Of a stretch of 64,000 nt of DNA, positions 2,941-56,000 are shown piece by piece. A program made the translations under genes and the position numbers. The stretch is from Paraspadella gotoi (lineage: Eukaryota; Animalia; Chaetognatha). Below the pieces are notes generated by a model. It did no database searches. It saw only the letters and a list, made by a program, of their open reading frames with translations, and had not been told where the DNA came from. Position 1 is the first letter of the stretch, and each line of letters opens with the position of its first letter. The stretch is taken from contig CM119265.1 of the NCBI GenBank assembly GCA_051294375.1, forward strand, positions 12,009,611 through 12,073,610, in the 5' to 3' direction.

Positions 2941-4004
2941 TTGTATCAGATTATGTGGCGTCTTACCTAAGACCTTTTGTGTAAGTAAAAGACACGAAGA
3001 TTCTTATAAGGAATTTGATCTTTAAAATTTAACTGTACCATAAAAATTCAAACATACTTATTTCTAAAATTAAGCAGTTAATGAGATTAGATAAACAATC
3101 ATTGAAGAAATCATGTCTTACCGTATTTTTAACTCATAAAAATTTACATGGGAAGTTCTAAGTGATAAGAAGGAGATAACTTGAGACGACCGTTTTTTTA
3201 AATGAAGAAATCTTCGTACTAACCAATAAGATCAAGAACGATGGTAATTATTGAAGTTCAGATTTCGTTGACTAAAAGACTCTGATTGTACGCGAAACCC
3301 ATATAATTAAAAGAAAGAGAGAGGGAAAGAGACATAATTAAAAGGTTTTTGTTTTGTAAATAAAACAAACAAATAGGAATATTGATATGAAACATGGGAA
3401 TTTTAAAGATCTTGATGATTAGAAGCCATATATAAATTTTCAACTCCCTATGATATCACACTTTTAGAAGCCATGATTGCAAAAAAGCGTGACAGACGAC
3501 GACGACGAATGCCTTTCAAGTCAAGTCCAGACGACGACGACGACTACGGCACAAAGAAGCGAAAGCGAATTATTATAGAGACAGGACCGGCTTCGCCCGG
3601 TCTGTCTCGATAAAAAAACGGTAAGTCACAGCCAAACCTATAAAAGCGTTGTAATTTTTATATAAAAACAGCGTGATGCCGACGACGACGTCACAAAGAA
3701 GCCTGGCCTTAACATTATAGAGCCAGGAGCAGGCGAAGCCTGTCCTGGCTCGATAAAAATAGCCATTCATTAAATAAGCCATATTTCCCCTGACTTTGGA
3801 CAGCCTTTGGTGGTTTAAGGCCTCCATCACTCTTATAAGCTAATGACATAATTAATTATATTAGATTTCGTTAGGTCCCCGTTTCTCTAATCGATTAACC
3901 AGAAAGAATTTACTATCACTCATTGCTTAAGGTCGAAATACAAAATTTAATCTGAAGAGACAGTAATTATTGATAAGTGTTAATGACAGAACCGTTCAAT
4001 ATAA

Positions 4005-4170
4005 GCAGTCCCTGAGCTTCGGATCAGGCTGTGACACCATGTTACAGGCGGGTTAAGCGCCCCGTCCCTCTTAACTGCCAGACGACCACCGGGCTATAAC
4101 CCCGGACCTTTGGGTTGGGAGGCGAATGACTTGCCTCCGGCACCAATGGCCGCTGATGAACGGTTGGTGG
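4005..4170 (-). mobile_element. tRNA(Gly-CCC)-like head plus twister-like structured body (diverged family member)
   Basis: Minus strand: tRNA-like segment with CTCCCAA loop, then GCAGT..GGGACGGGGCGCTTAACCCGCC[hairpin]GCCTGATCCGAAGCTCAGGG ACTGC; homologous to 27616-27775. Confidence 0.7.
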
Positions 4171-4392
4171 ATTTTAGGCCACCATAAATCATTAATTGAT
4201 TTCCGATTCCCTCTGACAATGACTTGCTATTATCACAAGATGGTCATTCAATTAAACCGATCACAAAACTTCTTGTACTTTATTTTAAAGGGCATTTTCT
4301 TCGTCATTCGGACCTTCTCACCATTCCTCACCGACATTGCTTTTTCAAGGCTTCCCCCTTTCCCCGTTTTCCACCCTTTACTACCAACCATG

Positions 4393-15800: not shown

Positions 15801-18800
15801 TTCGGAACACTTTTGGAAGTAATCAAATTTTTCGCAAAATAAATTTATTTTTAAATAAAAATTTTCTGGTGATATATCTAGGAAAGTGTCCCCACTACAG
15901 GATGATGTATTCATTTTTATCCTGCGGCCCCTTGGGGTAGCATTTTTTTTCCCCGTTTTACCCCACCCTGGGGTAAAACAGAACACTTAATAAATTATGT
16001 ATAATTTTTTATAATATTACCAAAAATAATAACTAAAACACTATTATTAAAAACAGAGCCTTTCATTTATGTTTTATGTATAAAAAATTTGTGTATAGAC
16101 TTTCGTTTTTTGTTGTTTTTGGGCATTAGGAGAAAAACATTTTTATTTGTTTTGACAACGAATTTTTATTGACAGTTTTTGGCAAAGTGTCTGCCAAAAA
16201 CTGTCAATAAAAATTCGTTGTCAAAACAAATAAAATTGTTTTTCTCCTAATAGGGGTAGCAGCACTCAATGGGGTGAGTCAAAAATTTAGAGCGAGTACA
16301 TGCTGAAACGAATATTTAGACATTTTTAAGAATACTTTCAATGGACAAAAAATTTCTAATATGGCTCTTTACCCTAGTAATTAATTTTTATCGTCCCAAT
16401 CGCTAAGCGTTTGCGACGATATTGTAACACTTTTGCGCATAAGTGGCGTAGGCGTCGTCGTCATCGTCGTTCCAAATTATAGATCGCCTTTTTTATGATT
16501 AAATTTGAGTTTATGAAGCTGAAAATTTATATACAGCTTCTCATCATCGATGTGCTTAAAATTGAGTCTGGACAGTTATTAAATATGTTTTGTTTATGTT
16601 TTATCAAAACAAACAAATTTTCTCTCTTTTATTTTCATATTTCTTTCTCTCTATCTTTTTTCTTTTAATTACATGTCTCTCTCCCTCTCTCTTTTCCCTA
16701 TTCACTGATTCATAATCATAGGGAAAAAAACGAGTCTGCAGCTGGCTCTGCAGGGGCTTATTCTTTTTCTCTATTTTCTCCTGCTGCTTTTGCTGCTGCC
16801 TTTTGAGTGCAGCTGGCTCTGCAGGGGTTCTCTCTTTTCTCCTGCTGCTTCTGCTGCTGCCATTTGATTTCTTTCTTTTTTCTCTCTTTCTCGCTGCGTT
16901 TTTATTTAAAAAAAAAATTGAAATAGGATTGAACTCGTAAAATTAGGCATCGCATTCGTGCATGTTATCATTTTGCTATCGCAACATCGGATTTTTATTT
17001 CGTTTTGACAATAATTTTTTTAATTTTTAAATTTTTTAATTAATTTTTAATTTTTTTAAAATTTTGTTAAAATTTTTTTTAAAATTTTTTTTTTTAATTG
17101 ACAATTGCAAAATAGAATTTTTCTTTCCTTTCTATTCTGTCTTTATTCTTTTCTTCTTTTTCTTTCTGTTTATAAATTATATTTCTTTTCTCAAATTTGA
17201 TTTTTTTTAGTATCAAAATTTGTCGTCAATCCAGATTTTTCTTATGCGATTGCGACGATCCTATTGCTTTTAAGATTTTTTTAATATTTATTTATAGATA
17301 GGAAAGGCAAAAATTTTTTTTTTAATTTTTAAATTTTAAGACCAGATTCAGATAGCTCATAAAAAGTTTTCTACACAAAGTATGATTTTTTAAAAATATT
17401 TTTACGATAAGTGTGTCAAAAATAAGAAAAACTAAAAAATATCATCGTCATCTTTCGATGATTTTATTAGTTTTTTTATATTTTCACTTAGAAAACGTAA
17501 GAATTTTTAAAAGCTGTAATTATATTTCTTGTTTAACTTTTTATGCTCTATCAGAATCCATTAAAAAATTTTAAGATTTTTAAAAAATATTTTTTGCTTT
17601 ATATAGTAATACCATCTTGGAAAATGAATAAGTCGCCAAATTTTAAAGTTAGTTAATTGTATATTAAAATTTAAATATAACAGAAAAAATGGGTATCAAT
17701 ATGTAGTGTGAACTCCCTTGCTCTTCACAACTTCATTTATTCTGTTCGGCATTGACTCATAGAGCGACTGCAGGTATTCCAAGGAGAGGTTATCCCAAAC
17801 TTTTTTGATAAGTCGTTTCATGGCTTGCAGAGATGTTGGACGTTCGTTTCTCAGTCGATTTTTCATCTCTGACCACACACTTTTGATCGGATTGAGATCC
17901 GGAGAGTTCCCAGGCCAGTCAGGTAGAAGTTTAACCCCATTTCGGCGATGCTACTCTCGTCTCCTTGGCTCGATGCAGAGGGGCGTTGTCTTCCATAAAA
18001 ACTCCACCTCGGACAAATTCCTTTATCTTCGCTTCAAGAATTTCTCTGTATTTGGCGCCTTCAACGCGTCCCGAAATGAAGATTAACTTTGACTTGGCAC
18101 GAGAAGATATTGCACCGAACACCATGACCTTCGGTTGTTGCTTAACCGTCTGCAATATGCAATTAGGATGCAATGCTTCGCCGACTCCGCTTCACACTTC
18201 GAAGATTCAGTCTTAGCTGCTTAGATATGGAAGTATTCTTGATACCCGCTTTGTGCAATTCAATTATAAATGCACGTTGATCACTTGTAAAATGCCAACG
18301 TTGAGGCATAATAAAAAAATAGTGTAAAATAAAAAAAAAGAAGGAAAAAAATTATTAAAATCTGAAATACGCCAAAGAAAGCAAATTTTTTTCAATCTCC
18401 TTCCTTTTCTTTCCTCTGCCCTGATGGCAATTTTTATCATAATCTAACATAAATCGGCTCCATTTGATCGAAAATCGCAAAGCTTTCTGGAAATATAATT
18501 TTCTTCTTTCAATTATGTTAGGAAGGTGTTTAAAAATGATCGAGAAGTTTGGCGACTTATTCATTTTCCAAGATGGTATAATATTTTTAATTAGGCGAGC
18601 AACCTCAGAAGAAAGCATTATTGACAAAAAATATTTTAATACCATAATCTATGGTCATGATAGATTATTTTGACGCTGTATACATTAGCATTTAAATTTC
18701 ATCGCCTATGGCTACTCCTAATTAGAGTTTCGTTAACCGTTAATTTTTCAGGAAATTCGCTTAACCTTTAAAACTAACATTTTTAACGGTTAACCATTAA

Positions 18801-24800: not shown

Positions 24801-27800
24801 CGGCACCGTTCCACAGCGCCGTGTAGCGAAACTTGTTCAACGACGCCGACTTTTGCGTCGTCGACGAGAGAAACGACGAGGAGAGCGCCGCAGAATTCGA
24901 GGCGGTGAACGGCGTTGGCAAAACGTCTACAGATTGACGCCGACGACCGTCGCCATGGGAGAGTCGCGAGGAAGAGGCGCCGGCAATCAGCGGCATCGCC
25001 TTGGATCGAGCGCTCGCGGCGTTGCTGGAGCGGATATGATGCAGAGACGGCGTTTCCGCAATTTTGTGGCGTCGTGGCGGCGGAATCGGATTAACGAAAC
25101 GAGGCTTATCTTCCGTGGTGACGTTAGCGCAGCTTTTGGCGAAGTTTTTTTTGTCGGCGTCGATGTTGGGCGATTCGTCAATGAGGGGAATTGTAGACGG
25201 CGTCGAGGGCAAGTAGGCGGCGGCGGCGATGCCTTGGCAGTTGGAGGAGTTTGCCGACGCGACGCCGGAAACTGTGACAGAGTTTTCATCGTTCTCTTCG
25301 CGCCCAACTCCAGATTTCATAGGGGTGGTTTCCAAATAGGGAGTGGCGATAGCGGAAGGTAATTGAGGCGGAGTTGATATCGGAAGCGGAGGAGGCGTTC
25401 CGGTCAAAGAGACAAAGGAAGTAGCGCCCTGTAATAGTTAAGCCAATTGGGAATGAATGTTTTATGAATGTTTTCCTAACCAAGCTACAAATGAGTATCA
25501 AGGATCCTTCAAAAATTTTAGTCCATCAACATACAGTATCGGTTTTGAAGAACCTGGAAAAGTCCAGGAGGCTGTAACTTTTTTGTAAATGCTGGAAATC
25601 AGCTGAAAATCGAATACGGGTTAGACCTGAGGGTGGTTTATTCCCCATAAGAGTTTGAGCCACTTTAAAAAAAAAATAGTGAATGGGCATTTTTTTGGAC
25701 AAAAAATTAATTTGCATACTGTAAAAAAAATATGGTAGTAAATACTCTTATATTATGGTGATATAACCGGGAGGGGTTGCCTAAACCAGTGGTAAAACAA
25801 AATGATCAAATACAGCTTTGTTAAAACTCATTTGCATACAGTAACAATATATTTTTTTATAATATTGTATTTTCAGTCTTATGATAATTTAAAAAAAATA
25901 TTTCAAATAATAGCTAACTGATACACCAATAACATACAATGCATAAATAGAATATTTGTTATTCTTTAATCCAAAATTAATTTTCAACAAATTATAAAAA
26001 TATGCATTTTTTTGAACAAATGTTTTTTTAAAAATAGTAATTATGCCAACCAACTGTCCTTGGTGCACTGATTACAATATATAATTTTTTTTTTAAATAT
26101 GACTACTATATTATGAAATATAACCCTTCAAACCTTAAAAAATACAGAAAAACACCCTTAATTCAAACTTTAATAAAAACCGTTCCAATGATTATTACAT
26201 CTCTCATACTTTAATACATATCAAGGAGAACCATCAGGTTTATTGTGTGAAAGTTATAGATAACTTCGATAAGGAGGATGACTGCACAGGAAGGCGAAAA
26301 ATAGATGATGAACTACATCAGCTTGTAATTGAATAATATACTCTTGCTTAATAAGACGGAACAAAGTAAAAACTAAGAGTTCTGTAATATAAATAACGTT
26401 AGAGCATCCCTGTGGGATGACGAATTGAAAAAAAAAATTAAGATTTTATATATAGTAAATAATATAGAAGCATTTAAGTTTATCGTATTACTATAAATCA
26501 TGAAAATTTTTTTTTTTTCAAAATCAGAATTTTTAAAAGCGGATTTGGGTAGAGATTGAAAAAAAAAAAAAAAAATTACTACAAGATTTTCAAATTTTAT
26601 TGTTTTATTGCTTAATATTAACAAAACTATAAAAATTATGGTAGGACAATGATGATGATGATTTTAAAGAGTTTTTCTGTTATTTGACCCACTTATCATC
26701 AAAATATTGAAAAACGCATTATACTTTTGTGTAGAAAACTTTTTATGGGCTATCTGAATAGGTTCTTAAAAAATAAAAATTTTACTTTGTTCCGCCTTAT
26801 TAAGCAAGAGTATAGTTTTTGTTAATATTAAGCAATAAAACAATAAAATTTGAAAATCTCTGTTAGTAATTTTTTTTTTTTTCAATCTCTACCCGAATCC
26901 GCTTTTAAAAATTCTGATTTTAAAAAAAAAAATTTCATGATTTATAGTAATACGATAAACTTAAATGCTTCTATATTATTTACTATATATAAAATCTTAA
27001 TTTTTTTTTCAATTCGTCATCCCACAGGGATGCTCTAACGTTATTTATATTACAGAACTCTTAGTTTTTACTTTGTTCCGTCTAATTAAGCAAGAGTATA
27101 TTATTCAATTACAAGCTGATGTAGTTCATCTATCTATTTTTCGCCTCCTGTGCAGTCATTCCTTATCGAAGTTATCTATAACTTTCACACAATAAACCTG
27201 ATGGTTCTCCTTGATATGTATTAAAGTATGAGAGATGTAATATCATTGGAACGGTTTTTATTAAAGTTTGAATTAAGGGTGTTTTTCTGTATTTTTTAAG
27301 GTTTTGAAGAGTTATATTTCATAATATAGTAGTCGTATTTAAAAAAAATTATATATTTGTAATCAGTGCATCGAGGACAGTTGGTTGGCATAATTACTAT
27401 TTTTAAAAAAAACATTTGTTCAAAAAAATGCATATTTTTATATTTTGTTAAAAATTAATTTTGGATTAAATAATAACAAATATTCTATTTTATGCATTGT
27501 ATGTTATTGGTGTATCAGTTAGCTATTATTTGAAATACATTTTTTTAAAAAATTATCATAAGACTGAAAAACAATATTGTGGAAGACGATGCCGCGAGCA
27601 GTTTACCGTCCGTTGCACACAAGGTCCCGAACTTTGGATCGGGCTGTAGTCCGACACTACAGGTGGGATAGACGCCCCGTCCCGCTTTTACTTGTGTGAA
27701 TCAGCAGGGCGCGAACCGAGTCCTTTGGGTTGGGAGGAGCTCGTGCTACCTCCGCGCCATAGGTGCTGCTGATTCTCGGACGAGTAGTGGGGTATGAAAT

Positions 27801-28626
27801 ACTACCACTACAATATTATAAAAAATATATTGCTACTGTATGCAAATGAGTTTTAACAAAGCTGTATTTGATCATTTTGTTTTACCACTGGTTTAGGCAA
27901 CCCCTCCCGGTTATATCACCATAATATAAGAGTATTTACTACCATATTTTTTTTACAGTATGCAAATTAATTTTTTGTCCAAAAAAATGCCCATTCACAT
28001 TTTTTTTTTAAAGTGGCTCAAACTCTTATGGGGAATAAACCACCCTCAGGTCTAACCCGTATTCGATTTTCAGCTGATTTCCAGCATTTACAAAAAAGTT
28101 ACAGCCTCCCTGGACTTTTCCAGGTTCTTCAAAACCGATACTGTAACTTATATCTCTTGTTAATAACCTTCATTCTCGGAGTTTGCCCATGCGCCATTTT
28201 ATTCGAATTTTCCTTTCCCGCCAGACGAAAGTCACGTCCTCTATTCCTTCGGTCGGCAAAAGGCAGCGACGAAGAATTGAGGCAGTCTTGTTCTTCCAGG
28301 TTACGCGGCGGAAAAAAGGTCCTGATTCGCGAGGCGGTCACGAGGGACGAATCGAGGGTCGAGAGTCCATCGCTCGTTGATCCCAAAGCGGGGATGTCAG
28401 GCGGAGTAAACAAAACGTCTTCTTCGTCGGAATTGTCTTTGATGGGAAAACAGATTCGATGCGTTAGAGTCAAACGGTGTAGCGCCGGAGAGCGGGAAAG
28501 CCGGACTGACGGAGCTAGGGTGGAAGGTGAAGCGGATGAACGAAGCTCCAGCGCTTGAAGATCTCGGACGCTGCAAGGAAGTTCTTTGTCGCAAACTTTA
28601 TTGACCGGCGGAGGATCCGTCGGCAT
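5276..28626 (-). CDS. DEP-domain plus RhoGAP-like protein, DEPDC1/DEPDC7/LET-99 family, multi-exon with a long low-complexity N-terminus
   Basis: Exons about 28626-28168, 25428-24705 (FRYTALWNGAVAALRENV..EIFS), 15718-15590 (GQDATNVLLKYL..DRSKAVKLGQHLLNNG), 10427-10182 (FEDHASKFFVF), 10117-9978, 9906-9808, then 7676-5276 including LLVPSERRNVLLRLLLFM, VLDTFAPVIF, QYCKTIEEETYEEQK and LYLSIKNDPSM..HPNLFVTQL*; splice phases agree where checked. Confidence 0.85.
7745..9797. mobile_element. 2.05-kb intronic insertion with about 160-bp terminal direct repeats and a 7-bp TSD
   Basis: 7745-7912 approximately equals 9641-9797; flanked by CTTTTCA at 7738-7744 and 9798-9804. Confidence 0.8.
12501..12574. 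repeat. 10-bp tandem repeat (CGTTCAATGC)n
   Basis: About 7 units read directly. Confidence 0.85.
13550..14001. repeat. 18-bp minisatellite (TTGGTCAACTG(A/G)CATAAT)n
   Basis: About 24 contiguous units with no unique spacers. Confidence 0.9.
14640..15330. repeat. Dispersed repeat with an inverted diverged copy at about 22550-23180
   Basis: Shared blocks such as CGCAGTACAAATCTTTGTTAAATAAAAATTTC and its reverse complement at about 22675-22705. Confidence 0.7.
16125..16251. repeat. Near-perfect hairpin with 60-bp arms and a 7-nt loop
   Basis: ATTAGGAGAAAAAC..TTTTTGGCA aagtgtc TGCCAAAAA..GTTTTTCTCCTAAT. Confidence 0.9.
17612..18576 (-). mobile_element. Internally deleted Tc1-like transposon with frameshifted transposase remnant
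   Basis: 29-bp TIR CCATCTTGGAAAATGAATAAGTCGCCAAA, TA TSD; residues KVMVFGAIS, FMEDNAPLHRAK, WPGNSPDLNPI and LYESMPNRI..KSKGVHTTY. Confidence 0.92.
18912..19522. mobile_element. hAT-like MITE (TAAGGCGTAGT family)
   Basis: TIR TAAGGC(G/A)TAGT, 8-bp TSD TTACCCAT; copies at 47502-48109 and partial at 46193-46636. Confidence 0.9.
20092..20747. mobile_element. Tc1/mariner-type MITE
   Basis: Long TIR CAGAAGGCTTCATATTATAAAATG.., TA TSD. Confidence 0.88.
20889..20930 (-). ncRNA. Minimal type I hammerhead ribozyme
   Basis: GACG CUGAAGA AGGCUU..AAGCC GAAAC AU GUA CGU; palindromic ACAUGU stem III. Confidence 0.8.
21096..21136 (+). ncRNA. Minimal hammerhead ribozyme, mirror copy with a stem III mismatch
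   Basis: GACGCTGAAGAAGGCTTGTAAAAAAGCCGAAACATATACGT in the right arm of palindrome 20837-21189. Confidence 0.65.
25534..28143. mobile_element. 2.6-kb foldback element with about 1.1-kb inverted arms
   Basis: CAGTATCGGTTTTGAAG.. and ..CTTCAAAACCGATACTG, TA TSD; arms about 25534-26632 and 26811-28143. Confidence 0.92.
27578..27812 (-). mobile_element. 235-bp TG..CA-bounded insertion with tRNA-like head and twister-like body
   Basis: Absent from the opposite foldback arm (empty site at about 25855-25870); TGTGG..CTACA termini, ATAT TSD (alternatively an 8-bp ACAATATT TSD); A box TGGCGCGGAGG, B box GGTTCGCGCCC. Confidence 0.88.
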
Positions 28627-32723: not shown

Positions 32724-35700
32724 TCAATTTTCATCGTCGCTTTTGTCGCCATTTCGGTGAGGAGATTTGCTGATTGAAAGATGGTGGTGAGGGTAAGGGA
32801 TTAAAATGAAAATTAAAGCGACCTGGAAAATTCGTCAACTCTTCCACAAACAAACCTTTCGCGCGAATCGGAACGGCCCCGGGATCTAGATCTCTCGTGG
32901 GATTTCGAATTGATTTCATCCCGAGAATTGGACCGATCGCGAGATATGGATCGACGGAAAGCTCTTTCCTTGGAATGGTCACGGGATCGCTTGTCGGCCT
33001 TTTCCGCGGAATGGGAACGATCCCTCGAGCGTTTGTCCTCTCGCTCGACGGATTTGCGTCGCTCCTCGGTTTTTTCGTCGGAATGGGAACGCTCCCTTGA
33101 ATGAGATCGCGGGTCAGCTCGATCGTTAGATGTTGAACGCTCTCGGGATCCAGAAATACGACGTGCTTTTGACTTCTCGGGTTTAGCCTCTTCTTTAGAT
33201 CTTTCTTGAGATTGAGAGCGCTCGCGAGATTTGGACTTAGACCTTTGCTGCGACGGACTACGAGATCGGCTCCTGCATAAAAAAAGTGGGGAAAAAGTTT
33301 GAAAAAAGGTTATTCATAACCAATAACCAACCTTCTTTTGGATCTTGAAAAGCTTGAAAAAAGGTTATTCATAACCAATAACCAACCTTCTTTTGGATCT
33401 GCTCCGGGAACGGCTTCTCGACTTGGACCGTCTTTTCGATCGAGACCGGCTGCGTGAACGCGATCTGCGACCGGGCTTGTCCTCAATCAAGCGAATTCGT
33501 CTTGAGGGGAAATAATTATAAAAAAATAATTTTCATTCATCTACCCTTCCGGTCCCTTCCTGAATACTGTCCGACCTCCAATAATTTTTTCACCTCCCGT
33601 TGAGCTCCGTGTCATCGAGAATGTCCAATGCTTTCTCCATTCCGTCGCGAGTCACGAACTCTACGAGTCCTTCGTTCATGCGCGACTTGTGGGCGTCGGT
33701 GAAGGTGACGTCGCCCGCCTTGCGCATGTAGTCCTTCAAGTCTTGCCTGAAGGAATCGAGGATTTGAGTTGCGGTCCAAGAGGGCATTTTTTTTAATACG
33801 ACAACAAACGGCTTATTGTAAACGATTAGTTTTTAAGTAACAAAGTACTTTTTAGATACAAAAAATAAAAATGATTGAGAAGGTGAGTTTTATTATTTTT
33901 TTTTATCCATCAACAAGATTCAGTCGTGGACTGAACCAAAGTCACGGCCCTGGTCAATTTCTTAAATTTCTCAACTTTCAATGCCCCTTTTTTTTCTAAT
34001 TAGCTGAAACAAAATTAATTTTTCGTCTTACAAAGTATGAAAAATTGCAAGATTACTTAAAAATATAAGAAGACAAAATATAAAATTTTAAAATAAATTT
34101 AAAAATTTAATAAATTTCACTATATGTGGATAAGGCGCTGCGTGGGCTGAAGATGACTGTCCGTAACTTCTATAACCCCCTCTATCAGCCATGGAACAGG
34201 TGACTGGGCTTGGAACCAGGCTTGAGCGTTTGCCAGGTCCCCAAGGCGGCTTACGGCCGTCCTCACGCTTCCCGCAGGGTAGATACCGGGTTAGGATTGA
34301 ACCAGGTACCTAGTGGTCATGAGCTGATGGCTTTACTCAATGAGGCACCGGGTCACGACTGAAGGCGTCATGCTTTTTGGCGGGGTGAACCTATGCAATG
34401 CCCGACTACATATATTAGATTTAAGTATATTCTTTATATAGAGAATATTCTTTCATAATGTGACGTAATATACAACACGAAGTTAAAAGTTATTTTCTGC
34501 TCTAGTTTTCTAATTAGATATTAGACATCATTCTTGTAAAGAAGTTATTTATTGAAAATTTCAAAATGTGATTGAATTTATACTAGTGCCTGAATCTAGA
34601 TTCAGATTTTCAAAAAACTTTCAAAATATGATCAGAACCATATTTAATGGAAATTAGATACACAGCCGGTAGGTCAAGTATGCTCAAAAGGTTAGTAATA
34701 AAAATCGAGTGACTCGAATATGCAAATGAGATTAATGCGTCATCCTAAGCCTTAGGCTAAGGTTGAATATAAGGTAAAAGAGAGCATAAACATTTTAATA
34801 ATAACTATTTTTTAGAAAAAACAATTAATAAATATGTTTTAACAAATTTTGATAGTTCTGTATAATAAAAAATATTTAAAAAAGCTAATTAATCTAATAA
34901 TATTAACATGGATATCGAAATTTTATAAATTTGTATTTTTTTTTTATTTTCATTATAAAATTGGTAAAACAACTTTTTTTAATTTTAAAAAATTATTTTA
35001 AAAAATATTTTTTTTTTAATAAACAATCAATTGGTTCAAGAAAATTACATTATTACAATACAATTGAAACATTCTTTAAAACATTATACCATTTCATTGA
35101 TAAGGAAGCCAGGTACTCTGGGAGTAAATAAACGAGACTGTGAGTAAGGGTAGCCCCACTCAATGGAGTGAATCAAAAATTTAGAATGATTATATGCTCA
35201 AACAAAAATTTATACATTTTTAAGTATACTTTCAATGGACCAAACATTTCTTATGTGGCTCTATACCTAAATAATTATTTTTTTAATATTTATTTATAAA
35301 TAGCAAAGGCCAAAATTTTTTTTGATAATTTTTAAATTTTAAGACCTGATTCAGATAGCTCATAAAAAGTTGTCTACACAAAGTATAATTCTTTTTTAAA
35401 TATTTTTATGATAAGCGAGTCAAAAATAAGAAAAACCGTAAAAAATCATCATCATCATCATCTTTCGATGATTTTATCAGTTTTTTTATATTTTTACATA
35501 GAAAACGTAAGAATTTTTAAAAGCTGTAATTATATTTCTTATTTAACTTTTAATGCTCTATCAGAATCTATCAAAAAATTTTAAGATCTCAAAAAAAAAT
35601 TTTATAATGTTAAAAAAGACAAGTAATATTTAATGTATTAATCAATACGTATAATATAAATTTTTTTTGAAAATGATTGTTTAAATATTTAGTCAAGACA

Positions 35701-38700
35701 ACTAAAAATACTTTGCTAATAGTCGAAATTTTATATTATCTCTGAAGTTGGTCCCTACTGTGAGAGAGTCCTAATTGTAAGCTTGCAGGGACCTGCTATG
35801 TCATTATCTTATAGGAGAGATGGAGGCCTTAAACCACCAAAGCCTGTCCATTGGACAGTGTCCACTGTCCAAAGTCAGGAGCAAGATAGCTTATTTATTA
35901 AATGAATGGATAATTTTTATATTGGTTGTACCAATTTCATAAAATTCATCTCCTTGTATTTTGATTTTTGATGCCGAGTAGAGTACAATATAGTATTCCC
36001 CGATCTAATACTTAAGGGAGTGGTATTTTCATACAATTGATACATTCTTTGAAACATTATACCACTTTATTGATAGGGAAGCCAGGTACTTTAGGAGTGA
36101 ATAAACAAGACTGTGAGAGAGTCTTGATTGAAAGCTTGCAAGAACCTGCTATGTCATTATCCTGTAAGAGTGATGGAGGCCTTAAACCACCAAAACCTGT
36201 CCAAAGTCAGGGGCAAGATAGCTTATTTATTAAATGAATGGTTAATTTTTATATTGGTTGTACCAATTTCATATTATAAACACTTTTAATAGGGAAAAGT
36301 CATTGACTCTTTTTGACAAAAACTAATTTCTTCTTTTTCAATTTTTGTACCAATCGATTTTGTCGTCCGATAACTTTTAAACACTTGTACCAATCGCTTT
36401 ATCGTTCAATAAGCTTTATTTTATGTATCTATATCTTTGTAAAATTCAGCCATACAATACGGTTTTTTTCGATGTGAAAAAGTGGTTTTTTTTTGCGCCG
36501 TAGTGTACAAGATAATGACAGAGCAGTTCCTTGCAAGCATTCAATCAAGACTCTTTCACAAACTCGTTTATTCATTCCCACAATATAATTTTGACATAAT
36601 TGTATTTGCAAGTACAAAAAGTATATTTTTTACCAAATATTTTGACTTATTTTTTAAGTTATTATCAGTGGTAAAATATTTAACAAGAATTAACAGTTTT
36701 TTCTGGAAACAAATAAGAAATATAGAGAGAGACTAAGAGAGAGAGAGGGAGAGAGTGTAGAGAAGTTTCCGTCTCTCTACGCCGCTCGAAGCAATATCAG
36801 TTGGTCCAGGAAAGGCTTGGCTAAATACCGCAAACGACAAGGCATCCACTGACTCTATATCATGAGTATAATCTCGAAGACAATGTAAGAGAAATCATAG
36901 AGTAAATCGAAGTGTAATTCTAAAGAAATGCATCAATAATCCGTCATATAATCCAGCAATAATTCGTTAAAGCCAGTGTAAAATGCCGTAGGAAAATGGT
37001 TAAAATACCGAGGGAAAATCGTCCAAGCGAGCGGAATCTATCAACTGAATTCGCGATCCAAAGTCTGACTGAGGTTGACCGGGGGAGAAGAGGAGAGAGC
37101 AAGAGAGAGAAGTCTCTCTCGGTCCACAAACTATCTGGTTCTACTTCACCCCCACCAGTGGTCAATCAAACGGGTCTCAATCAATCATAGTTTCCCTCGG
37201 TTCTAAAATTTAACATCTAATGACTAGATAAAGGTATGACCAAAAAACTAAAAACACCATGATCTGGTGAAAAACTAAATAAGACCATCTTCTTATTTCA
37301 TTCTTCTTCTTTGTTTCATTTTTGACGCTATGATTCCACATTTCAGGCGTCCATTCCATTTTGTTCCAGTTTCTGAAGTTCCTCCTGACGGCCCCGGCGA
37401 TGTTGTTGTTCTTGAATCCCCATCATGCACCGGCTGCTGTCTTCTCTCAGAGTCGCGTCATCACTCGGATTCGTTTCTTAAAAGAAAGGTTAGAGGGAAA
37501 CAAAGAGCAGTCTGTTTCCTAATATTTGGTTCTTGTCCGTTCTTTTGTTTAGATTCTTTCGTTCCATTTTGTGATCATAGGGGTGCCGTAAAACTCAGCA
37601 AATCAAAGTCGTAGGTTCTTTAAAAAAAATATTTATGAAGAATAATTTAATTCTTTAAATCCAATTCCTTGAAACGATTTCAATTCATCATTCATTTATG
37701 GCTTAAATACATCTTACCTCTTGAAGACGCCAACCGTACAAAATTGTATTTATCCAGTCTCGAAATATTCATGCTCAGGTTGCTGTTGCTGTTAATTCTT
37801 TTCAGAGTGGATGACCTCTTCTGTGTCCAAAGTTATTCAGATTCAATCAAGGATCCAATCAACGATATTGATGAAGGAATGTTTTGGATCAGGGATAATA
37901 ATTTGATAATTCAATTCAATTCATAATTCAAAGGGGTTCATAATTCATAAGAACAATCAAGGTTTTCATCACAGAAGGGTTTCAAATAAAGTCTCCATAC
38001 CATGGAATTGAAAGATAAATAGAGCTCAAAATGAGCAGGCCCCCCTTGGTTTATGCAAATGAAAGGCCCCAACGATGTAGCCGGGTCATTGACGCGTCAT
38101 TGGTTGAGATGACAATCTTATTGAGTTCGTTGTCATTGCATTAGGCAGACTTCCTTGCGGGAAAAGATCAAGTGCAACTTAAATGTCTCTCTGGCCTGAT
38201 ACGCCTGCCACTTTTGTGGCAGGAGTGACGGACTCCTCTCCCTCCTCATGTAGCCGTCGTTTTGGGCGGCGCTCATTTTGAGCTCTATCATAATTCATAA
38301 TTATTCACTTTAACAGTCACTTATCTATCCCTCACAAAAAATTTATCATTTCACATTTAAAAACTTTCTTTCGTTTCATTACTATCTATTATTAGATTAA
38401 TTGTTAAATTCACTATTAGTTTAAACTTATTCCTGGTTGTACATTGCACAATGTATTATTTTGTCTCTCTCTGTTTCTCTCTCTCTCTCTCCTTCTCTCT
38501 CTCTCTGTCTCTCTCTCTTTCACCAATTGACCATTTCACTTCTTTTCACAACTGATCTGTCCTCAACTTAAACTGTACTCATTCTTTAAACCACTATCTC
38601 TGTGTTGGAAACTTTTTGCCCCCTCTCTCTCTCTCTCTCCCTTCTTTTGCACAAATTTATAAATGTTTATTAACGCTAATGAAGGCTCGAAAAAAGAGTC

Positions 38701-41700
38701 GAAACATGTCCGTACAAAAATAAAATCGTTGAAGAACTTATTTTCGAACTTTGCTTAAATCTCAACTCAACGAAACTGAAAGGATTAATACAAAACATTC
38801 ATTAAAAAAATATTAGTTTTTAGCTTAAGCCAAGGGTGTTGAAGAGCTAAAATATTTAAATATTTTTTTAAATATTTATAAATTATAAATTATTATTTTT
38901 TTAAAGATAACTTTCTTTAAGTTTTAAGCTTTAAGTTAATCAATTAATTTAATAATATTTTTTAAAACTGAAAACCCCAAAAACTTCTATGATCCAAAGC
39001 AATTAATTTTAATTTTTAATCACAAAATGTAATTGTTACAAGATAAAATTATTTAAATAATATTCGGATATTACTATAAAAAAATGTTTACTTTATACTA
39101 TATAAATATAATTTTATTTAAAAAATAATTTAAAAAATGATATCTGCATATAAATTTTATACGGATAAGAGTAATAGTTTGGTTTAACTCTATATACAAA
39201 TATTTTGTTATTAAATAAAATAATTTTTTTTAATATACATTAATTTAAAAAAAAATAATTAATTGGTTTTTACTTTGTTCATTAAATAATTGTTTAACAA
39301 AGAAGTTTGTTTTTTCACTAAATTTAAAAACACAAGGAAAAGAAAGTTATGATTTATTAAATATTCATTAAAAATAATTACCTCTTATAATCCGATTCAT
39401 ATATTTAAATTAATTCATAAATTCATTTAGAAACTATTTTACTATATAATAATATTGTTAATTGTTAATTAACTTACTTGATTAGCAAATTATTAACAAA
39501 TTTAAATTATAAACATTGTGTTGAACTTTTTTATTGCATTTTTAAATTTAGAAAAAAAATTAGTGGTAATAACCTTTCTTTTTTCGTTGTTATATGTATT
39601 GAGGCAAAAGGTTTTAGTTCACAACAAATTTTATTTTTCATAGAAAACGTATATGTTTCGCTTTGGATGCAAGCCTTCTTCAGCGTCAAATGATTTGTGA
39701 AATTTTGGACAGTTTTTTTTGTGTGAAAGAAGAGAGAGAGAGAAAAAAAAATGTTATATTAACAAAAAAATTTAATGAATTTGTTAACAATTTTATTTTT
39801 ATCGTTGTTAACAAATTCATTAAATTTTCTTTGTAATCAACAAAAAAGAAAGGATCAAACCATAAATATGTTAACAAATATTTTTTTAATAAAAAAGTTT
39901 TTTTTAAGTTTAAATTTTTTAGGAAATGTTTGAGTGCCAAAACAACAATTTTTTATTATCAATAGTACATGTTTCGACTCTGCTGGTTCGAGTCTTCATC
40001 AGCTTTGAAAACATTAACAAAAATGCTCTACACATTAAGTTAGAGAGAGAGAGAAAGAGAGAGTGAGAGAGATTGAGGGAGAGTTTCCAACAAAGGGCTG
40101 AGTAAAGGACAGTGGCCAGATGAGAGGACAGGTGAAGGTAAGAACAGAGAAGAAGATAATTTTGAAATGGTGAAAAGTGAAAGAGAGAGAGAGAGAGAGA
40201 AAAATAATTACATTTGACAATGTACAACAAAAATAAATTTAGAAAACTTAGAAATAAGCTGAGATTTTGAATTAACAAAAGTTAAATAAGTAATAATGAA
40301 AATTGAAATGGAGGAATAGGTTGTGAGGGATAGATAAGTTAATAGTTAAGTGAAATATATAAGAGAAGAAAGAGCTCAAAATGAGCTGGCCCCCCCCGGG
40401 CGGACAAAGGTGGGACGCTGACGATATGATGGGGTCATTGGCTTGTCATAGACTGAGATGATATTCTTGTAGAGTGGGATATCATGGGGTCAGGTAAAGA
40501 CCTGGCTGGGAAAATACCAAGCGCCACTCTAATATCTCTTTGGTCTGATAAGCCTGCCGAAGGGCCTCCTCTCACCTGACGGTGAGGTGGGCGGTTGCCT
40601 GTTCTTGCCCGTTTTGGTGCAGGAGATACAGACTCCTCTCCCTCCTCCTGTAGCCGTCGTTTTGGGCGTTCTGGCGTTCAGAGAGTCACGCCAAGTTGCT
40701 ATAGGTTCGGGAGAGGTATTGGACGTCCATTGCCTGCCAGGAGGCCTCCGCCTGACCCGTTGAGTTGGGACGGGGAATCACCGTGCGGTTGGGGTGGCAT
40801 TGGGTGTTCCACCACCAGTTTGATTAGCGAATCATAGCTTGGAGGGAGATTGAATCATCCTCCATCACGGTTCAAAGAGGGTTCGAGGGCTTTGATGTAA
40901 ACAGCCTCTCTAATACCTCTAATCAGCTCATTTTGAGCTCTTTCTTCTCTTATATATTTCACTTAACTATTAACTTATCTATCCCTCACAACCTACTCCT
41001 CCATTTCAATTTTCATTATTACTTATTTAACTTTTGTTAATTCAAAATCTCAGCTTATTTCTAAGTTTTCTAAATTTATCTTTGTTGTACATTGTCAAAT
41101 GTAATTATTTCTCTCTCTCTCTCTTTCACTTTTCACCATTTCAAAATTATCTTCTTCTTCTCTGTTCTAACCTTCACCTGTCCTCTCATCTGACCACTGT
41201 CCTTTACTCAGCCCTTTGTTGGAAACTCTCCCTCAATCTCTCTCACTCTCTCACTTTCTCTCTTTCTCTCTCTCTCTCTAACTTAATGTGTAGAGCATTA
41301 TTGTTAATGTTTTCAAAGCTGATGAAGACTCGAACCAGCAGAGTCGAAACATGTACTATTGATAATAAAAAATTGAAAATTTTAATAGACACATTTTAAT
41401 CCGACAATATTTTAAATAAACCAGTCTGGGTGTCATTCTGTTCGTTTTTCCAAGCTCCTTTTAACTAAAAAAGTTTTATTTAAAAAAAAACTTTTTCGCC
41501 CGAGCCAGGGGTGTTAAAGACCCAAAATATGAAATTTAACCTTTTATGAGTATTTTTTAGCTTTTTTCAGTAAATTTTTTAATATAATTATCATTAATCC
41601 AGTTAATTATTAATGATACTGCTTTTAATTTATCATATTTAACTATTTTTAAAACATTCATTCACAAAAAATATTAGTTTAGGGCTTAAGCCAGGGGTAA

Positions 41701-44700
41701 AATTTTTAAATTGTCTTTAGTATTTTCAAATGATAATTTACTATTTTTTTTAGGATTACATATTTTAATCATGATAATAAAAATATTTTACAATTTTAAA
41801 TGTTTTTTTAAGTTAATTAACATAATTAATTTTTTTATAATTAAAAGCATTAAAAACAATTGTGACCTATTTCTAAAAAGTTTTTTTTAAAAGATTCATC
41901 TTTAAAACAAAGCAATTCATAAAATTTTTTAATCAAATAATAAAATTGTTACAACAAAGATTATTCAAATGATATCCATTATCCAGATTTTATGCGATAT
42001 CGCATAGAAAATATTGTTAATGAACTGAAACTAATGTTCTAGTTATGGCAATTTTACCAAAATTAGGTTAAGGGTTAGTGTTTAGTTTTAACATTTGAGG
42101 TAGTTGTAATTAAGGTTGAATAAGTAAAAGTTAGCATTACGATCAACAAGGTTGTTGTAGTTATACCCAACTGGAAAGTGACAGATGGGAAAAGTTTTAT
42201 CGGTTCAAGGTTCATGCTTGGCCTTGGACGCGAAGCGGAGGTTAGGGCCATGGGAGGGACTTACGTGGGATGCTAGGATAGAAATTATTTATATTTTATA
42301 TGGTGACAATTTTACAAGCGCCGGTAGAAATACGCTGTCATTTGCAAACCAGTGGTTATTTCATTGATTTTAAAAATTATTTGAGTAGAATATATTAAAG
42401 TCATTTATGTGTTCAAATTTTATATTGATCAGTTAAGATATGCCTTGGCAATGAGTGGAGAAAGTTGGCTTGTAAAATCGGGTTTCATTTTCTAACTCAC
42501 TTTTTTAGATTCAATTTTTTTTTCTTACTTTCAGTAAGTGTTCTGAAGAAATTTAAAATAAAATAATATTAATATTATTATCTTCTGAAAGCCCTTTCAA
42601 ATTTAAAGAGAATGACATACTTGCAAATACTGTAGTATAAAATTTAACCGGCCCAGCTTTAATTTAATTAGGATACTCAAAAACAAGACATCTTTTAAAA
42701 AATCAATAGCTGGAGGGTAAATTTAAGATTTTTATCAAATTGTGATTGGCTATCTTAAATCTCCTTTTTTCAAGCTCTTTCATGATACTTATATAAATAA
42801 TAATATATTATGTTATAATAATTAAATCAGGTCATATATTTTAAAAAAAGATTTGAAATTTTAGATAATTAACTTTTGACTCTCTTAATTGAACTAAGGC
42901 TGGGCAGCTTAATTTTTATGTTAAAGCTTTCGTAACTATATCATTCTCTTCATTTTTTTAAGGGCTTTCTGAGGATATTAATATTGTTAATATCTTAATA
43001 AATACTTTGTTTAAAAAAGAGCTAAAAGTTGAAAAAAAAAAAATTAAAAACAGTGAGTTGGAAAATGAAACCCGATTTTACAAGCCAACTTTCTCCACTC
43101 ATTGCCAAGGCATATCTTAACTGATCAATATAAAATTTGAACACATAAATGACTTTAATATGTTCTACTCAACTAATTTTTAAAATCAATGAAATAACCA
43201 CTGGTTTGAAAATGACAGCGTACTTCTACCGGCGCTTGTAAAATTTTCACCATGTAATTAGGATTTTCAAATTTAAATTTAAAAAAAAACATTTATTAAA
43301 AAAATATTTGTTAACATATTTATGGTTTGATCCTTTCTTTTTTGTTGATTACAAAGATTACAAAGAAAATTTAATGAATTTGTTAACAACGATAAAAATA
43401 AAATTGTTAACAAATTCATTAAATTTTTTTGTTAATAAAAATTTTTTTTCTCTCTCTCTCCCTTCTTTCACACAAAAAAAATGTCCAAAATTTCACAAAT
43501 CATTTGACGCTGAAGAAGGCTTGCATCCAAAGAAAAAAGAAAGGTTATTACCACTAATTTTTTTTTCTAAATCTAAAAATGCAATAAAAAAGTTCAACAC
43601 AATGTTTATAATTTAAACTTGTTAATAATTTGCTAATCAAGTAAGTTAATTAACAATTAACAATATTATTATAGAGTAAAATAGTATCTAAATGAATTTA
43701 TGAATTAATTTAAATATATGAATCGGATTATAAGAGGTAATTATTTTTAATATTTTATAAATCATAACTTTCTTTTCCTTGTGTTTTTAGATTTAGTGAA
43801 AAAAACAAACTTCTTTGTAAAACAATTATTTAATGAAAAAAGTAAAAACCAATTAATTATTTTTTTTTTAAATTATTGTATATTAAAAAAAATTATTTTA
43901 TTTAATAATAAAAATATTTGTATATAGAGTTAAACCAAACTATTACTCTTATCCGTATAAAATTTATATGCAGATATCATTTTTTAAATTATTTTTTAAA
44001 TAAAATTATATTTATATAGTATAAAGTAAACATTTTTTCATAGTAATATCCGAATATTATTTAAATAATTTTATCTTGTAACAATTACATTTTGTGATTA
44101 AAAATTAAACTTAATTGCTTTGGATCATAGAAGTTTTTGGGGTTTTCAGTTTTAAAAAATATTATTAAATTAATTGATTAACTTAAAGCTGTGGTAAGTC
44201 GCCTCAAAGCATTTAAAGATATCAAATATTTTCATTACCATGATTAAAATAAGTTATCTTTAAAAAAATAGTAAATTATAATTTATAAATATTAAAAAAA
44301 ATATTTAAATATTTTAGCTATTCAACAGTCAACACCCTTGGCTTAAGCTAAAAACTAATATTTTTTAATGAATGTTTTAAAAACAGTTAAATAGGATAAA
44401 TTAAAATCATTATCAGAGGTAATTAACTTGATTAAAGATTATTATATTAAAAAAATTAACTGGAAAAAGCTAAAAAATACTAAAAAATGGTGAATTACCA
44501 TATTTTGACACTTCAACACCCCTGGCTCGGGCGAAAAAGTATTTTTTTTTTAAATAAAACTTTTTTAGTTAAAAAGAGCTTGGAAAAACGAACAGAATGA
44601 CACCCAGACTGGTTATCTAATTAAAACTTTGTCGGATTCAAATGTGTCTATTAATTAATATTAAAAACTGCCACAATGGTTACTTTAAAATAGTGACGCC

Positions 44701-45575
44701 AGACCGAGCCGTCCGGAGGAAAATCGGCAGGACGCTCTGTCGTCGAAAACCGTACATGAAAATAGAGAGAGAAAAAAGATACTTTTTTTCCTCTTAGTTA
44801 TTTTCGAGCCTTTTTCCTTGATTTGACTTACGAAACTTACCAAGAAACGGAAGAAGAAAGGTTCTCGACGATGAGACGGTAGCCAGTTCTAGGCCCCGGC
44901 CCCCGCCCGCGCGGCGGAGGGCGTCCGAATCGATCCTCGCGATATCCATATCCTCCGCCACCGATGCCTCGAGTGTTGGGTCGCCGCGCGTGCTCCACCA
45001 CCACCCGAACGCCCATCATTGTACGACCGTTCAGCTCGTGGACGGCGTCTGGCGAGGAAAAAGGAGAAAGGAAAAGGCAAAGGTGGAAACAACAAAGATT
45101 AAAGAAAACAAGTTTGAGCAAACAATGTCGGATCTGCCTACGAAAATTAATTAATTGATTGATTAATTAATTAAATAATTAATTTTAATATTTATAATTA
45201 ATTATAAATTTATATACAGCTTTTCATCATCGATATCCTTAAAATAAAGTAAATGTGTCGAGTAATATTCTTCTCGATCCTTGTCGACGTCCAAAGAGTC
45301 TTTCGCGGAGAGAATTAACTGCTTTTGACGGTCTCTATATATCAAATTTGAATATCTCTCGCCGTAAGAATTGTAAACAAACACGAAAATAATCCGTGAA
45401 AATATTGTTTTTTTTTTTGCGGAGAAAAATCGATGTAAACAATGTAAATTCGAGCAAACGTCCAAATGATATACAGAATTTTGTGAAAAAATAGTTGAGG
45501 TCTCCATGAAGTCGCGAAAAAGAATCGAATAATAATCCAGTAAAAAGTCGCTAACCAAGAAAAGTGCAGAGAGAT

Positions 45576-45623: not shown

Positions 45624-48600
45624 AAAGAGTCGGGTCGTCGGTCGATAATAAGGTCAATGTCGGGTCAATGTCTAACTATGACTAGAATAGGCCGAACGTT
45701 TCTTCAAAATGTGACTTATATTTTTTCCATTTAAACTCATTTCTACTGGCACAATTCCGTCAAAACTTTATATCTAGCTTCTTCACAAACTTTCCTTCCC
45801 GCTCACAAAATTTCATCTCAATCTATTATGGGTTAAAATAAGTAAAAAGATTCAAGTAAATGTGACTCATATTTTTTTCATTTAAACTCATTTCCACTCA
45901 TACCGAAACTTTATAACAAGCTCGTCACACATTTTCCTACCCACAAACAAGTATTTATTGGTTAAAATAAGTAAAAAAATTTTAGTAAATGCGACTTATG
46001 TTTTTTCCATTTAAACTCCTATCCACTCACACGATTCCGTTGAAACTTTATATCCAGCTTCATCACACATGTTCCTACCCATACATAAAATTTCATTCCG
46101 ATCCAACCAGCCAATCACGAGTTATTGGGGCTTTTTGCTAAGGTGGGATGGATGGACGGATTGATTGACTAATTAATTAGTGATTAATAATAAGTTTTCT
46201 TAATTTTGATTACAGATTTGAATTCCTCTTCAAAAGTTAATAAAAGAAAATATAAATCATTTTTAAAAATTCTTTCATTTAGTGGGTTAAAAATTAAAAA
46301 AACTATATTTAATATATAAAAAATTAATTTTCAGCTTAAAATATAGCTTTTTCTAACTTTTGACCCACTTAATAAAAAAATTTTTCAAAAAGAGTTATAT
46401 TTCTTTTTATCAACCTTTTATGACGAATCCAAATCTTCAAAAAAATCTTAAAAAAAAAATGGTTTGAAATTTTAACATTTATTGATTTAGTACTAGTATA
46501 AATATAAGCCACTGCGTAAATTGTAAAATTTATTATAAATTTTTTTATTACATAAATGTTCATTAATATAATGTTGTTCATTCCTCACTTTTAGAATTTT
46601 AATTAAAGTTAAATTTAGAAATTTTACTACGCCTTAATATGCAGGATGTATTAATAAATCAAATTAATTAATCAGTTAATAATCAATTAGTCAATTAATT
46701 AATCAATAATTAATTAATCAGTCAATCAATCCGTCCATCCGTCCCACCTTAGCAAAAAGCTCCAATAACTCGTGATTGGCTGGTTGGATTAGAATGAAAT
46801 TTTGTGTGTGGGTAGGAAAGTGTGTGATGAAGCTGGATTATAAGTTTCGACGGAATCGTGTGAGTGGAATGAGTTTAAGTGGAAAAAACATAAGTCGCAT
46901 TTACTAAAATATTTTTACTTATTTTAACCAATAAGTACTCTAATTAATCATAATTGGATGGATAGATTGAGTTACACATTTTTCTACCCACACAAAAAAT
47001 TTGAACGATGCTTGATATAAAGTTTCGGTGGAAACGTACGAGTGGAAATGAGTTTCCTGGATGCTCATTATGGATTTTCCACGCCAGTTTTTGCGTTGAA
47101 CCACTTCCGGTTTTAAAATTCATGATTTTTGAAATAAATAAGTTTATTCAGCCAGCATACTAAATAATAAAATAAAGTTACCAATAACCTTAATATTACA
47201 TTTTTTATTTTAGTTTATAAATAAGGTTATAAAAATATTATTACAAAAGGCGTCAAGTTAAAACTTCATAATTCTTTTAAGCCAAATTGGCCCTGACCAA
47301 ACTACTTTACTAATTTTAATAAAATTTTACTATCTGGTTAAACAAATAGAACTGTCTAAGGGATTTTAAATCTTTAATCTTTAAACCAAGATATTGGCTT
47401 TTAAAAAGATTACCAAGTGATGCAAAAAGTAGCGAATTAGATGGTAGGCGACTTAGCCTTTGCAGCAAGCAAGCCTCTCACTCAACCCTTACCCTAAACA
47501 GTAAGGCGTAGTGAAAGTTACATACGAAGATTCTAAAAGTCAATTATGAACAACATACCATCAGTGAACATTAATTTGTAAAAAAAATTAATTTTATGTT
47601 TTTAATTTTGCAGTCGGCTATATTTATATATAGTACTATCCTTATAAAATAGAAAAATTTCAAAATAGGCTTTTCTTAATTTTGATTGCAGATTTGAATT
47701 CCTCGTCAAAAGTTGATAAGAAAATATAAATCATTTTTAAAAATACTTTCATTAAGTGGGTTAAAAATTTAAAAAAACTATATTTAATATATAGAAAATA
47801 ATTTTCAGCTTAAAATATAGCTTTTTCTAATTTTTGACCCACTTAATGAAGGAATTTTTAAAAAAGAGTTATATTTCTTGTTATCAACTTTTTATGACGA
47901 ATCCAAATCTGCAAAAAAATCTTAGAAAAAACTGTTTTGAAATTTTAACATTTATTGGTTTAGTACTAGTATAAATATGGCCTACTGCGTAAATTGTAAA
48001 ATTTATTCTAAATTTTTTTATTACATAAATGTTTATTAGTATAGTATTGTTCATTCCTCACTTTTAGAATTTTAATTAAAGTTAAATTTAGCAATTTTAC
48101 TACGCCTTACTAAACAGGGCCCTAAACAAAACCTTAATCTTATCAGTTTCCCTGGCTTGGGATATCTAACCTAGCCCTAACCCTAACGTGGGCTTTTGTT
48201 CTTACCCGAGCAGCCTTTCCCTAACCTTAACCCAAGCTCGTGTACTTCCTGCTCAACCTTAACCCTAAACTGGTCCCTGTTCCAAACCCTCACCAGTTTC
48301 CCTGGCTGGTGAAATCTGCAGAGAGCCACTTCCTTAGCCCTAACCCTAACCTAGGCCTCCTGTTTTATATCATGCCAGAACCCTAGCCCTGCATCACTCC
48401 AGAGCCTCTCCACCAACCCCACATCAGCCTGAGGTTCACCTCTGAGCCTCAACTCAGGCATCCCTGCTTCCCGGCCATCAATAAGGCTAAGTTTTAATTC
48501 TTAATTTCCTTCCCCAGTACTTTCCCTAACCCTAACCCAAGCTTCCTGTCCTTTTCTTAGCCTGTCCAAATTGCAATATCACAATACTTAATCTTGTTAT

Positions 48601-55274: not shown

Positions 55275-56000
55275 AGATTATGGTTAGGGTTAGGGTTTTA
55301 GGGTTAGATTAGGGTTGAGTTGGTTTGGTTTAGGGTTAAGGTGAGTTGGTAATAATTAGGGTTAGGGTTGAGTAGTTTTAGGGTTAGGGTTAAGGTTGAG
55401 GTAGTTTAAGGTTATGGTTAGGGTTAATGTCAAGTTTTAAGGTTAAGATAAACAAGAAGCCGGCATTAGGGTTAAGGAAGGTACTGGCAATGGATATTAG
55501 GGATTAAAGTTGAAGTACGAATATATGAGGGAGGCCCGGTCCCGGGTTAAGGTTAGGGTAAGGAGAAGAGGCATGGAGTTGAATGGGAGGCTTGGGTTAG
55601 GGTAGGGGGAGAGGCTTACTGTTGATGCATCAAAGGCGGTGAGGGTTAGGGTTGAGGAACAGAGATATATGGGAAGCCCAGGCCCGGGTTAGGGTTAGAG
55701 TTGGGAAAAAAGCATGGAGTTGAACACGGGAGGCTCGGGTTAGGGGAAAAGTTCATGGTTGATGCATCAAAGGCAGTTAGGGTTGGGTTGAGGCACAGAG
55801 ATGTACTGGAGGCCAAGGCCTAGGCTAGGATTAGGGGAGAGGAATGGAGTTGAACAAGAGGCCCGGGTAAGGGTTAGGGTTAGGAAAGCCCACAAATGGG
55901 TTAAGAGTTGAGGCATGGAAATGTATGGGAGGCCTAGGCCTGGTAAGGTTGAAGAAAAGCATGGGAGATGTACGGGAGACTTGGGTTAGGGTTTAGTTTT
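55275..56000 (+). repeat. Degenerate interstitial TTAGGG-rich array
   Basis: GGTTAGGGTTAGGG runs grading into longer higher-order units. Confidence 0.8.

Follow-up and report, generated by a model that had tools for sequence, protein, structure and literature searches.

The 286-bp element described here is likely the solo LTR of a Helenus-like non-autonomous mini-retrotransposon, as far as its letters tell, and behind a tRNA-like head it carries a predicted ribozyme, the known type-P5 circular permutation of the twister (Table 1). The unusual part of the element is the P1 helix of this twister, which the first-pass annotation had missed. P1 is reduced to a six-base palindrome, and such a helix is predicted to favour cleavage mainly as a two-copy pair. 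On balance we lean towards a reading in which a tRNA-headed solo LTR with a type-P5 twister would cleave mainly as a pair and follow a route through circular RNA. All positions are those of the 64-kb window, by which we mean the whole stretch of DNA that was analysed.

Table 1. Features of the element, its relatives and its surroundings in the 64-kb window.
Feature	Positions	Strand	Basis or remark
Whole element, likely solo LTR	34125..34410	-	286 bp, TGTAG..CCACA; ends common to many copies
Target site duplication TATA, left	34121..34124	.	Flank sequence
Target site duplication TATA, right	34411..34414	.	Flank sequence
5' part ahead of tRNA-like head, probably U3-like	34355..34410	-	56 nt
tRNA-like head, likely Pol III promoter, not a callable tRNA	34282..34354	-	Sub-threshold ARAGORN; aligns with family 1 heads
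CAT in anticodon-like place, Met identity unsupported	34319..34321	-	
Box B-like motif	34293..34303	-	1 mismatch to the consensus
Type-P5 twister-like fold	34196..34275	-	P5 34275-71/34200-196; P2 34268,66,65/34250-48
GA (predicted general-base G 34264) and T1 strand GGA	34260..34264	-	T1 partner 34214-34212
P1 reduced to palindrome CGGCCG, predicted to pair between two copies	34254..34259	-	
Predicted cleavage site U^A of UAA	34252..34253	-	Position in Rfam consensus
T2 strand GC	34247-46	-	Pairs with 34209-08
P3 hairpin	34222..34244	-	
P4 hairpin, loop UUCCAAGC	34204..34219	-	Rfam consensus, covariation, RNAalifold
3' part of LTR	34125..34195	-	No run of 3 or more T on the minus strand
Sister family 1	27578..27812	-	Same ends, ATAT, tRNA-like head, twister with GGCGTC
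Third lineage	3993..4171	-	Decayed ends, tRNA-like head, twister with GGCGCT
Family 3 twister	36156..36223	+	No P3, palindrome AGGCCT, in a different repeat
Further family 3 twisters	35803-35891 (+), 61408-61470 (-), 3777-3844 (-)		
Family 3 AT-rich repeat	35058-36386 (+), 61233-62014 (-), 3753-3850 (-)		No TG..CA/TSD match
Host intron of RRM gene, about 11 kb, element in sense	33747..44840	-	RRM match, translation across junction, GT/AG sites

Ends, target site and copies

The element forms a GC-rich island (56%) within AT-rich DNA, with TATA on either side. On the plus strand TGTGG starts at 34125 and CTACA ends at 34410; the letters of these ends, the length of 286 bp and the 4-bp TATA duplication thus stand as the first-pass annotation had given them. 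We scanned the window for TGT..ACA ends 150-520 bp apart, bounded by a 4-6 bp duplication, with GC-rich sequence inside and AT-rich sequence outside. Two matches were returned, this element (TATA) and the family 1 element at 27578-27812 (ATAT), and the AT-rich surroundings weaken the evidence of the 4-bp duplication at both. No second copy of the element was found within the 64-kb window.

Many further copies are present in four public runs from three samples (two runs represent one sample), all used as contigs. The family occurs in 4257, 4553, 1695 and 431 contigs of the four runs. Loose contig ends fall at 34125 in 50, 51, 27 and 11 contigs and at 34410 in 54, 60, 30 and 18, and the flanks beyond both ends are unrelated among copies (agreement 0.38-0.51). 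This piling up of loose ends next to unrelated flanks indicates that the ends are family-wide and that there are at least dozens of insertions. The copy number may run into the thousands, on the basis of summed depth, which is not itself a copy number.

No internal sequence common to the copies was found beyond the element ends among the flank rows listed from the public-run contigs. The copy in the window stands alone, with neither a PBS nor a PPT found in its flanks. A Pfam scan of 80 reading frames (6 plus 74, the 74 chosen from 120 GC-richer frames) found no reverse transcriptase and no integrase among them.

A tRNA-like head

ARAGORN reports zero tRNAs in the 64-kb window at its default threshold. 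With the threshold lowered to 70% of its value, the program places a tRNA at 34282-34354, the anticodon being undetermined. The box B-like motif departs from the consensus by 1 mismatch, and box A is absent from its expected place at up to 2 mismatches. The CAT at 34321-34319 does lie in a loop-like place, around which, by eye, the stem is unpaired. The Met(CAT) identity given to the head in the first-pass annotation is not borne out by these results, and we read the head as what its sequence indicates, a tRNA-like promoter remnant and not a tRNA-Met. The element was also considered as a tRNA-derived SINE (SINE2). This was rejected because the head starts 56 nt inside the element, the CCACA end has no tail and the target site duplication is only 4 bp.

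A predicted type-P5 twister fold

The Rfam Twister-P5 consensus (RF02684) runs in the order P2, GAGgG, P1, UAA, P2, GC, P4, and the strands of an alignment of six window copies follow the same order. The first-pass annotation had observed a GGA before P2, which is correct, and had called this order unlike canonical twister, which does not hold, since it equals the Twister-P5 consensus. Three twister permutations, types P1, P3 and P5, are known (PMC5408937 and PMC6765202, both in part), and what had been proposed as a possible new ribozyme topology is the type-P5 circular permutation (RF02684; PMC5408937, in part).

The six copies represent four lineages and align without gaps in the core. The type-P5 structure pairs 92.1% of 114 cells, and two-sided changes occur in 13 of 22 pairs, both pseudoknots included. 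By element, pairing reaches 100% in P2, 80% in P4, 94% in T1 and 100% in T2, with two-sided changes in each. Two of the three T1 pairs show such changes, the first of them appearing as U-A, C-G or G-C across lineages, and T2 pairs vary between A-U and G-C. GA, UA and AAG are invariant in all six rows. None of 500 shuffles reached the covariation score, and slid control structures paired 23-51% of cells; the structure was drawn from the same six rows, three of them near-identical within the four lineages, so that these controls lean towards it.

A model built on the six window copies found a seventh. A descriptor scan, its descriptor composed after the motifs had been seen, gave 4 motifs in the window; 30 shuffles averaged 0.67 and reached 3 at most. 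In reads, variation of 5% or more affects 1 of the 40 core positions once P3 is set aside, with its pair kept, compared with 34 of 246 positions elsewhere (Fisher p 0.027, for the rows listed). The mismatches of this copy in P3, P4 and P5 fall at positions where the majority letters of the copies fit the helices, as judged by hand.

Rfam Twister-P5 scores 19.0 bits at this element, wrongly aligned, and the gathering score of 37.6 is reached by none of the seven twister copies in the 64-kb window. We have filed the fold of 34196-34275 as a variant that would work like type P5, not as a member of RF02684. Energy-based folding favours other structures. The best nested monomer fold has -29.8, compared with -8.6 for the nested part of the twister (pseudoknots uncounted). 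Neither this fold nor the best self-duplex (-25.5) is the twister, and both look inactive. RNAalifold recovers only P4 plus an alternative hairpin. The folding energy of the whole element is no better than that of shuffles (z 0.24) and was dropped as evidence.

A palindromic P1

In every lineage exactly six bases separate T1 from UAA: CGGCCG, GGCGTC, GGCGCT or AGGCCT. When the descriptor left P1 free (4-14 nt, pairing not required), all four matches carried a fully self-complementary hexamer. Among hexamers in general 5.3% are self-complementary; if only the two inner pairs are required and GC-rich hexamers are taken, the share is 14.8%. All 18 cells of the palindrome pair, the outer pair as A-U, C-G, G-C or G-U and the inner as G-C or C-G.

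Within one molecule P1 amounts to one pair on a tetraloop; between two copies it becomes six pairs. The swapped P2-P1-P2 duplex has a calculated energy of -7.9 to -11.3 kcal/mol per dimer, versus +3.3 to +5.8 for P1 with P2 in a monomer. Self-duplexes of other layouts around this palindrome come out at still lower energies than the P2-P1-P2 duplex. There is precedent for control of this kind in axolotl hammerheads, in which one pair is capped by a palindromic tetraloop, dimers cleave better and RtcB circularises the product (PMC7229834).

Related lineages

Four features are shared by the divergent families, as the first-pass annotation had proposed: TG..CA ends, a 4-bp target site duplication, a tRNA-like head and the twister fold, whose pseudoknots covary. 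Its statement that the two families differ in sequence is likewise confirmed, in that their best local score of 24 was equalled by 72 of 300 shuffles. The family 1 twister at 27578 has a T1 mismatch and UAU in place of UAA. Another family 1 copy, at 259-432 (+), keeps the head and 3' end, with its twister core replaced by A-rich sequence. Nested foldback or MITE-like inverted repeats span 25567-28109 and 38927-44190, and the family 1 element at 27578-27812 lies inside the first.

Family 3 is arranged differently. Two tandem units occupy 35058-35941, which an insertion of about 600 bp interrupts, and 36031-36386; the twister copy at 36169 scores 25.9 bits with Twister-P5, against the gathering score of 37.6. 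This family may be a twister version of non-LTR retrozymes. Elsewhere in the window, an array of an 18-bp unit at 13504-14030 lies inside another repeat family.

Pattern scans for twister relatives gave 0, 0 and 0 matches in viral contigs and 0 in metagenomes. A looser pattern gave 2 matches in metagenomes, a scan of prokaryote genomes gave 5, and all 7 were dismissed as chance, since the best reached 9.2 bits with the six-copy model against 40.8-81.7 for the window copies. No relatives were thus found outside this organism in the viral contigs, metagenomes and prokaryote genomes searched.

Host intron and surrounding sequence

The element lies in sense in an intron of a gene that we take to be SRSF4/5/6-like, from its SWQDLKD motif. 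The presence of introns, the genes found and the TTAGGG-like arrays suggest a eukaryotic host, likely an animal. At 40380-40930 a broken minus-strand frame, which resembles the end of a Penelope GIY-YIG endonuclease, is enclosed in a foldback with inverted arms at 40180-40388 and 40924-41132. A single-exon frame of 331 aa at 50888-51883 (-) has CENP-B_N and Tc5 HTH domains and is possibly a domesticated pogo/Tigger gene. Remnants of a Tc1/mariner DDE_3 transposase, in two frames, lie at 17699-18191 (-). Degenerate TTAGGG arrays, interstitial telomere-like repeats inside the chromosome arm, are found at 55278-55426 and about 48150-48400.

Proposed mechanism

We propose that Pol III would start at the head in the 5' LTR and, with no T-run in the LTR to stop it, continue through a presumed internal PBS/PPT region and the 3' LTR. 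The missing T-run was dropped as evidence because 65% of shuffles also lack one. The six-base palindrome is then predicted to pair the two twisters of the transcript, which would exchange halves and each cleave at U^A. By analogy with retrozymes, this would yield a unit-length RNA without the R repeat, closed into a circle by a host ligase; tRNA-primed reverse transcription by a Gypsy-type helper and integration with a 4-bp duplication would follow. Solo LTRs might arise through LTR-LTR recombination or from short cDNAs. Lone copies would cut poorly, which would explain why one is tolerated in sense within a splicing-factor intron.

The model for the later steps is provided by plant LTR retrozymes, whose RNA is cleaved in each of the two LTRs, is left without R, becomes circular and is reverse transcribed by Gypsy machinery; their inserts are solo, full or multimeric, with 4-bp target site duplications (PMC4918200 and PMC7761336, both in part). 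Helenus families add a parallel for the position of the ribozyme. In the available part of the PMC10886601 supplement, most wasp Helenus LTRs inspected by eye have a T-run directly after the tRNA. Two LTRs with internal regions, Helenus-2_SyJa-LTR and Helenus-2_SyUm-LTR, have after the tRNA a motif that by eye resembles a type III hammerhead and goes unmentioned in the available article text. A hammerhead-like motif at the place of the T-run in two Helenus families supports a ribozyme in place of the terminator as a recurring design. More tentatively, and with somewhat less confidence than an even balance would allow, we suggest that widespread animal mini-retrotransposons may join a tRNA-derived Pol III promoter to a domain-swapped twister, in which the palindrome would act as an AND gate, giving circles and leaving solo copies harmless.

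Alternative explanations

The same LTR and twister could act without pairing, the twister cutting as a monomer in place of a Pol III terminator. We consider this possible and distinctly improbable relative to an even chance. If the 5' copy were trapped in an alternative hairpin, the RNA would keep the R repeat (head to cut) and the element would replicate as an ordinary linear TRIM. Monomers may cut, given that P1 is dispensable in the env22 mini-twister, which cleaves at nearly the wild-type rate without it (PMC5408937, in part), and Schistosoma variants with a weak P1 are active as well (PMC8501958, in part). A single pair closed by a tetraloop is feasible on steric grounds, the copies retain an alternative hairpin over GG..CC, and the T-run found in most Helenus LTRs inspected also fits a role in place of a terminator. 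Counter to this, the self-complementary inner pairs would not be needed by a monomer, yet they covary (G-C to C-G). Moreover, a strong monomer cutter lying in sense in a host intron would presumably be costly.

Alternatively, the 286-bp unit may be no LTR at all and instead a whole mobile element resembling a SINE, a Ginger element or a non-LTR retrozyme. The observation of lone copies only, the unrelated flanks of many of them, and the presence in family 3 of the same twister in a tandem repeat without TG..CA ends or target site duplication would all be expected of such a unit. We nevertheless regard it as improbable. The head is internal, and the 3' end is CCACA with no A-rich or tandem tail found on the element; both families show a 4-bp duplication; and the termini are inverted over 5 bases only. 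Ginger elements carry long inverted repeats, which further counts against a stand-alone unit.

That the twister-like part is a second decayed tRNA unit, its P4 hairpin resembling a T arm with box B, appears very unlikely. The loop does match box B at 2 mismatches, ARAGORN at an 80% threshold calls a tRNA over the twister part in three lineages, and the Rfam score is far under threshold. A decayed tRNA would not account for two covarying pseudoknots and the retention of the bases invariant in twisters, nor for the 25.9-bit Twister-P5 match of the same motif in family 3.

The GTGA..TCAC body quoted in the first-pass annotation is exact in its letters on the minus strand (34266-34200), but its closing stem is copy-specific, and the CGGC/GCCG hairpin, also offered as a conserved helix, pairs in just 58% of cells in the six copies. 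A new ribozyme topology closed by GTGA/TCAC is the least credible reading: nested folding of this single copy does give it the lowest energy, whereas the strand order is that of Rfam Twister-P5, the stem pairs in 33% of cells across the six copies, its four-base 3' strand has two bases changed in most copies (34202 and 34203 carry other letters in 96-98% of read depth), and a published search for further twister permutations found none (PMC10085705, in part).

Comparison with known systems

Taken together, the topology of the ribozyme is already known, the element class lies near Helenus, and the proposed route is that of retrozymes. Helenus elements are TRIMs (TRIMp3) with a tRNA-like sequence in the LTR, a 4-bp target site duplication in animals and common solo LTRs (PMC10886601, in part). 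As here, they have TG..CA LTRs of 120-323 bp and a non-functional tRNA with box B GGTTC (Kojima 2024, PMC10886601, in part), and our element, with TG..CA ends and 286 bp, stays under about 320 bp. The differences are the twister fold after the head, and the lone copy, at which no PBS or PPT is seen. The text of PMC10886601 contains 'twister' 0 times and 'ribozyme' once, in the reference list. Twister-loop motifs in the available part of its supplement had no twister-like context in an LTR, by eye, in a format in which line breaks can hide matches.

Compared with type-P5 twisters (RF02684), the strand order, the UCcCAAGC loop of P4, both pseudoknots and the invariant GA, UA and AAG are the same. 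In contrast, P1 here is a six-base palindrome where the consensus has a stem with loop over 20 positions, P2 is a bulged helix of three pairs, a P3 occurs, and the score is 19 bits versus 37.6.

Plant LTR retrozymes share with our element a self-cleaving RNA (here predicted) in an LTR of about 300 bp, a 4-bp target site duplication, solo LTRs and the lack of coding capacity (PMC4918200, in part). The element differs from them, as the same source describes them in part, by a predicted twister in place of a type III hammerhead, by a tRNA-derived internal promoter and by a host that is likely an animal. No hammerhead core was found in 34125-34410.

The dimeric type I hammerheads of amphibian retrozymes and Penelope-like elements have a one-pair stem and a palindromic tetraloop, and repeats place two copies in each transcript (PMC7229834 and PMC6765202, both in part). 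Here the ribozyme class is another, the element is of the LTR type, and dimer cleavage is a prediction only. Twister variants of Schistosoma Perere-3 share a weak or missing P1 and a location in an animal retrotransposon. There an autonomous non-LTR element carries the twister at its 5' end, and the target site completes P1 (PMC8501958, in part), whereas the present twister is of type P5 and follows a tRNA head within a repeat. Unpublished truncated twisters in RTE elements are mentioned as well (PMC7761336, in part).

The literature searched was mostly open-access and seen in part, with PMC5680766 among the sources. It contained no twister in an LTR or TRIM and no dimeric twister, and the first twister paper (Roth 2014) and its supplement may list type-P5 examples from eukaryotes with a short P1. 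Within this scope, neither a twister with a palindromic P1 nor the union of Helenus, type-P5 twister and retrozyme route appeared.

If the proposed reading is correct, this would be the first dimeric twister, and Helenus and retrozymes would merge into one replication strategy. LTR retrozymes would extend beyond plants to animals and beyond hammerheads to twisters. The twister would have evolved the same palindrome-and-dimer control as the hammerheads found in repeats, thus constituting a natural two-copy switch, and this would answer how Pol III-driven LTR elements set their RNA ends without a terminator. It would further suggest that genomes contain a reservoir of twisters scoring under the Rfam threshold.
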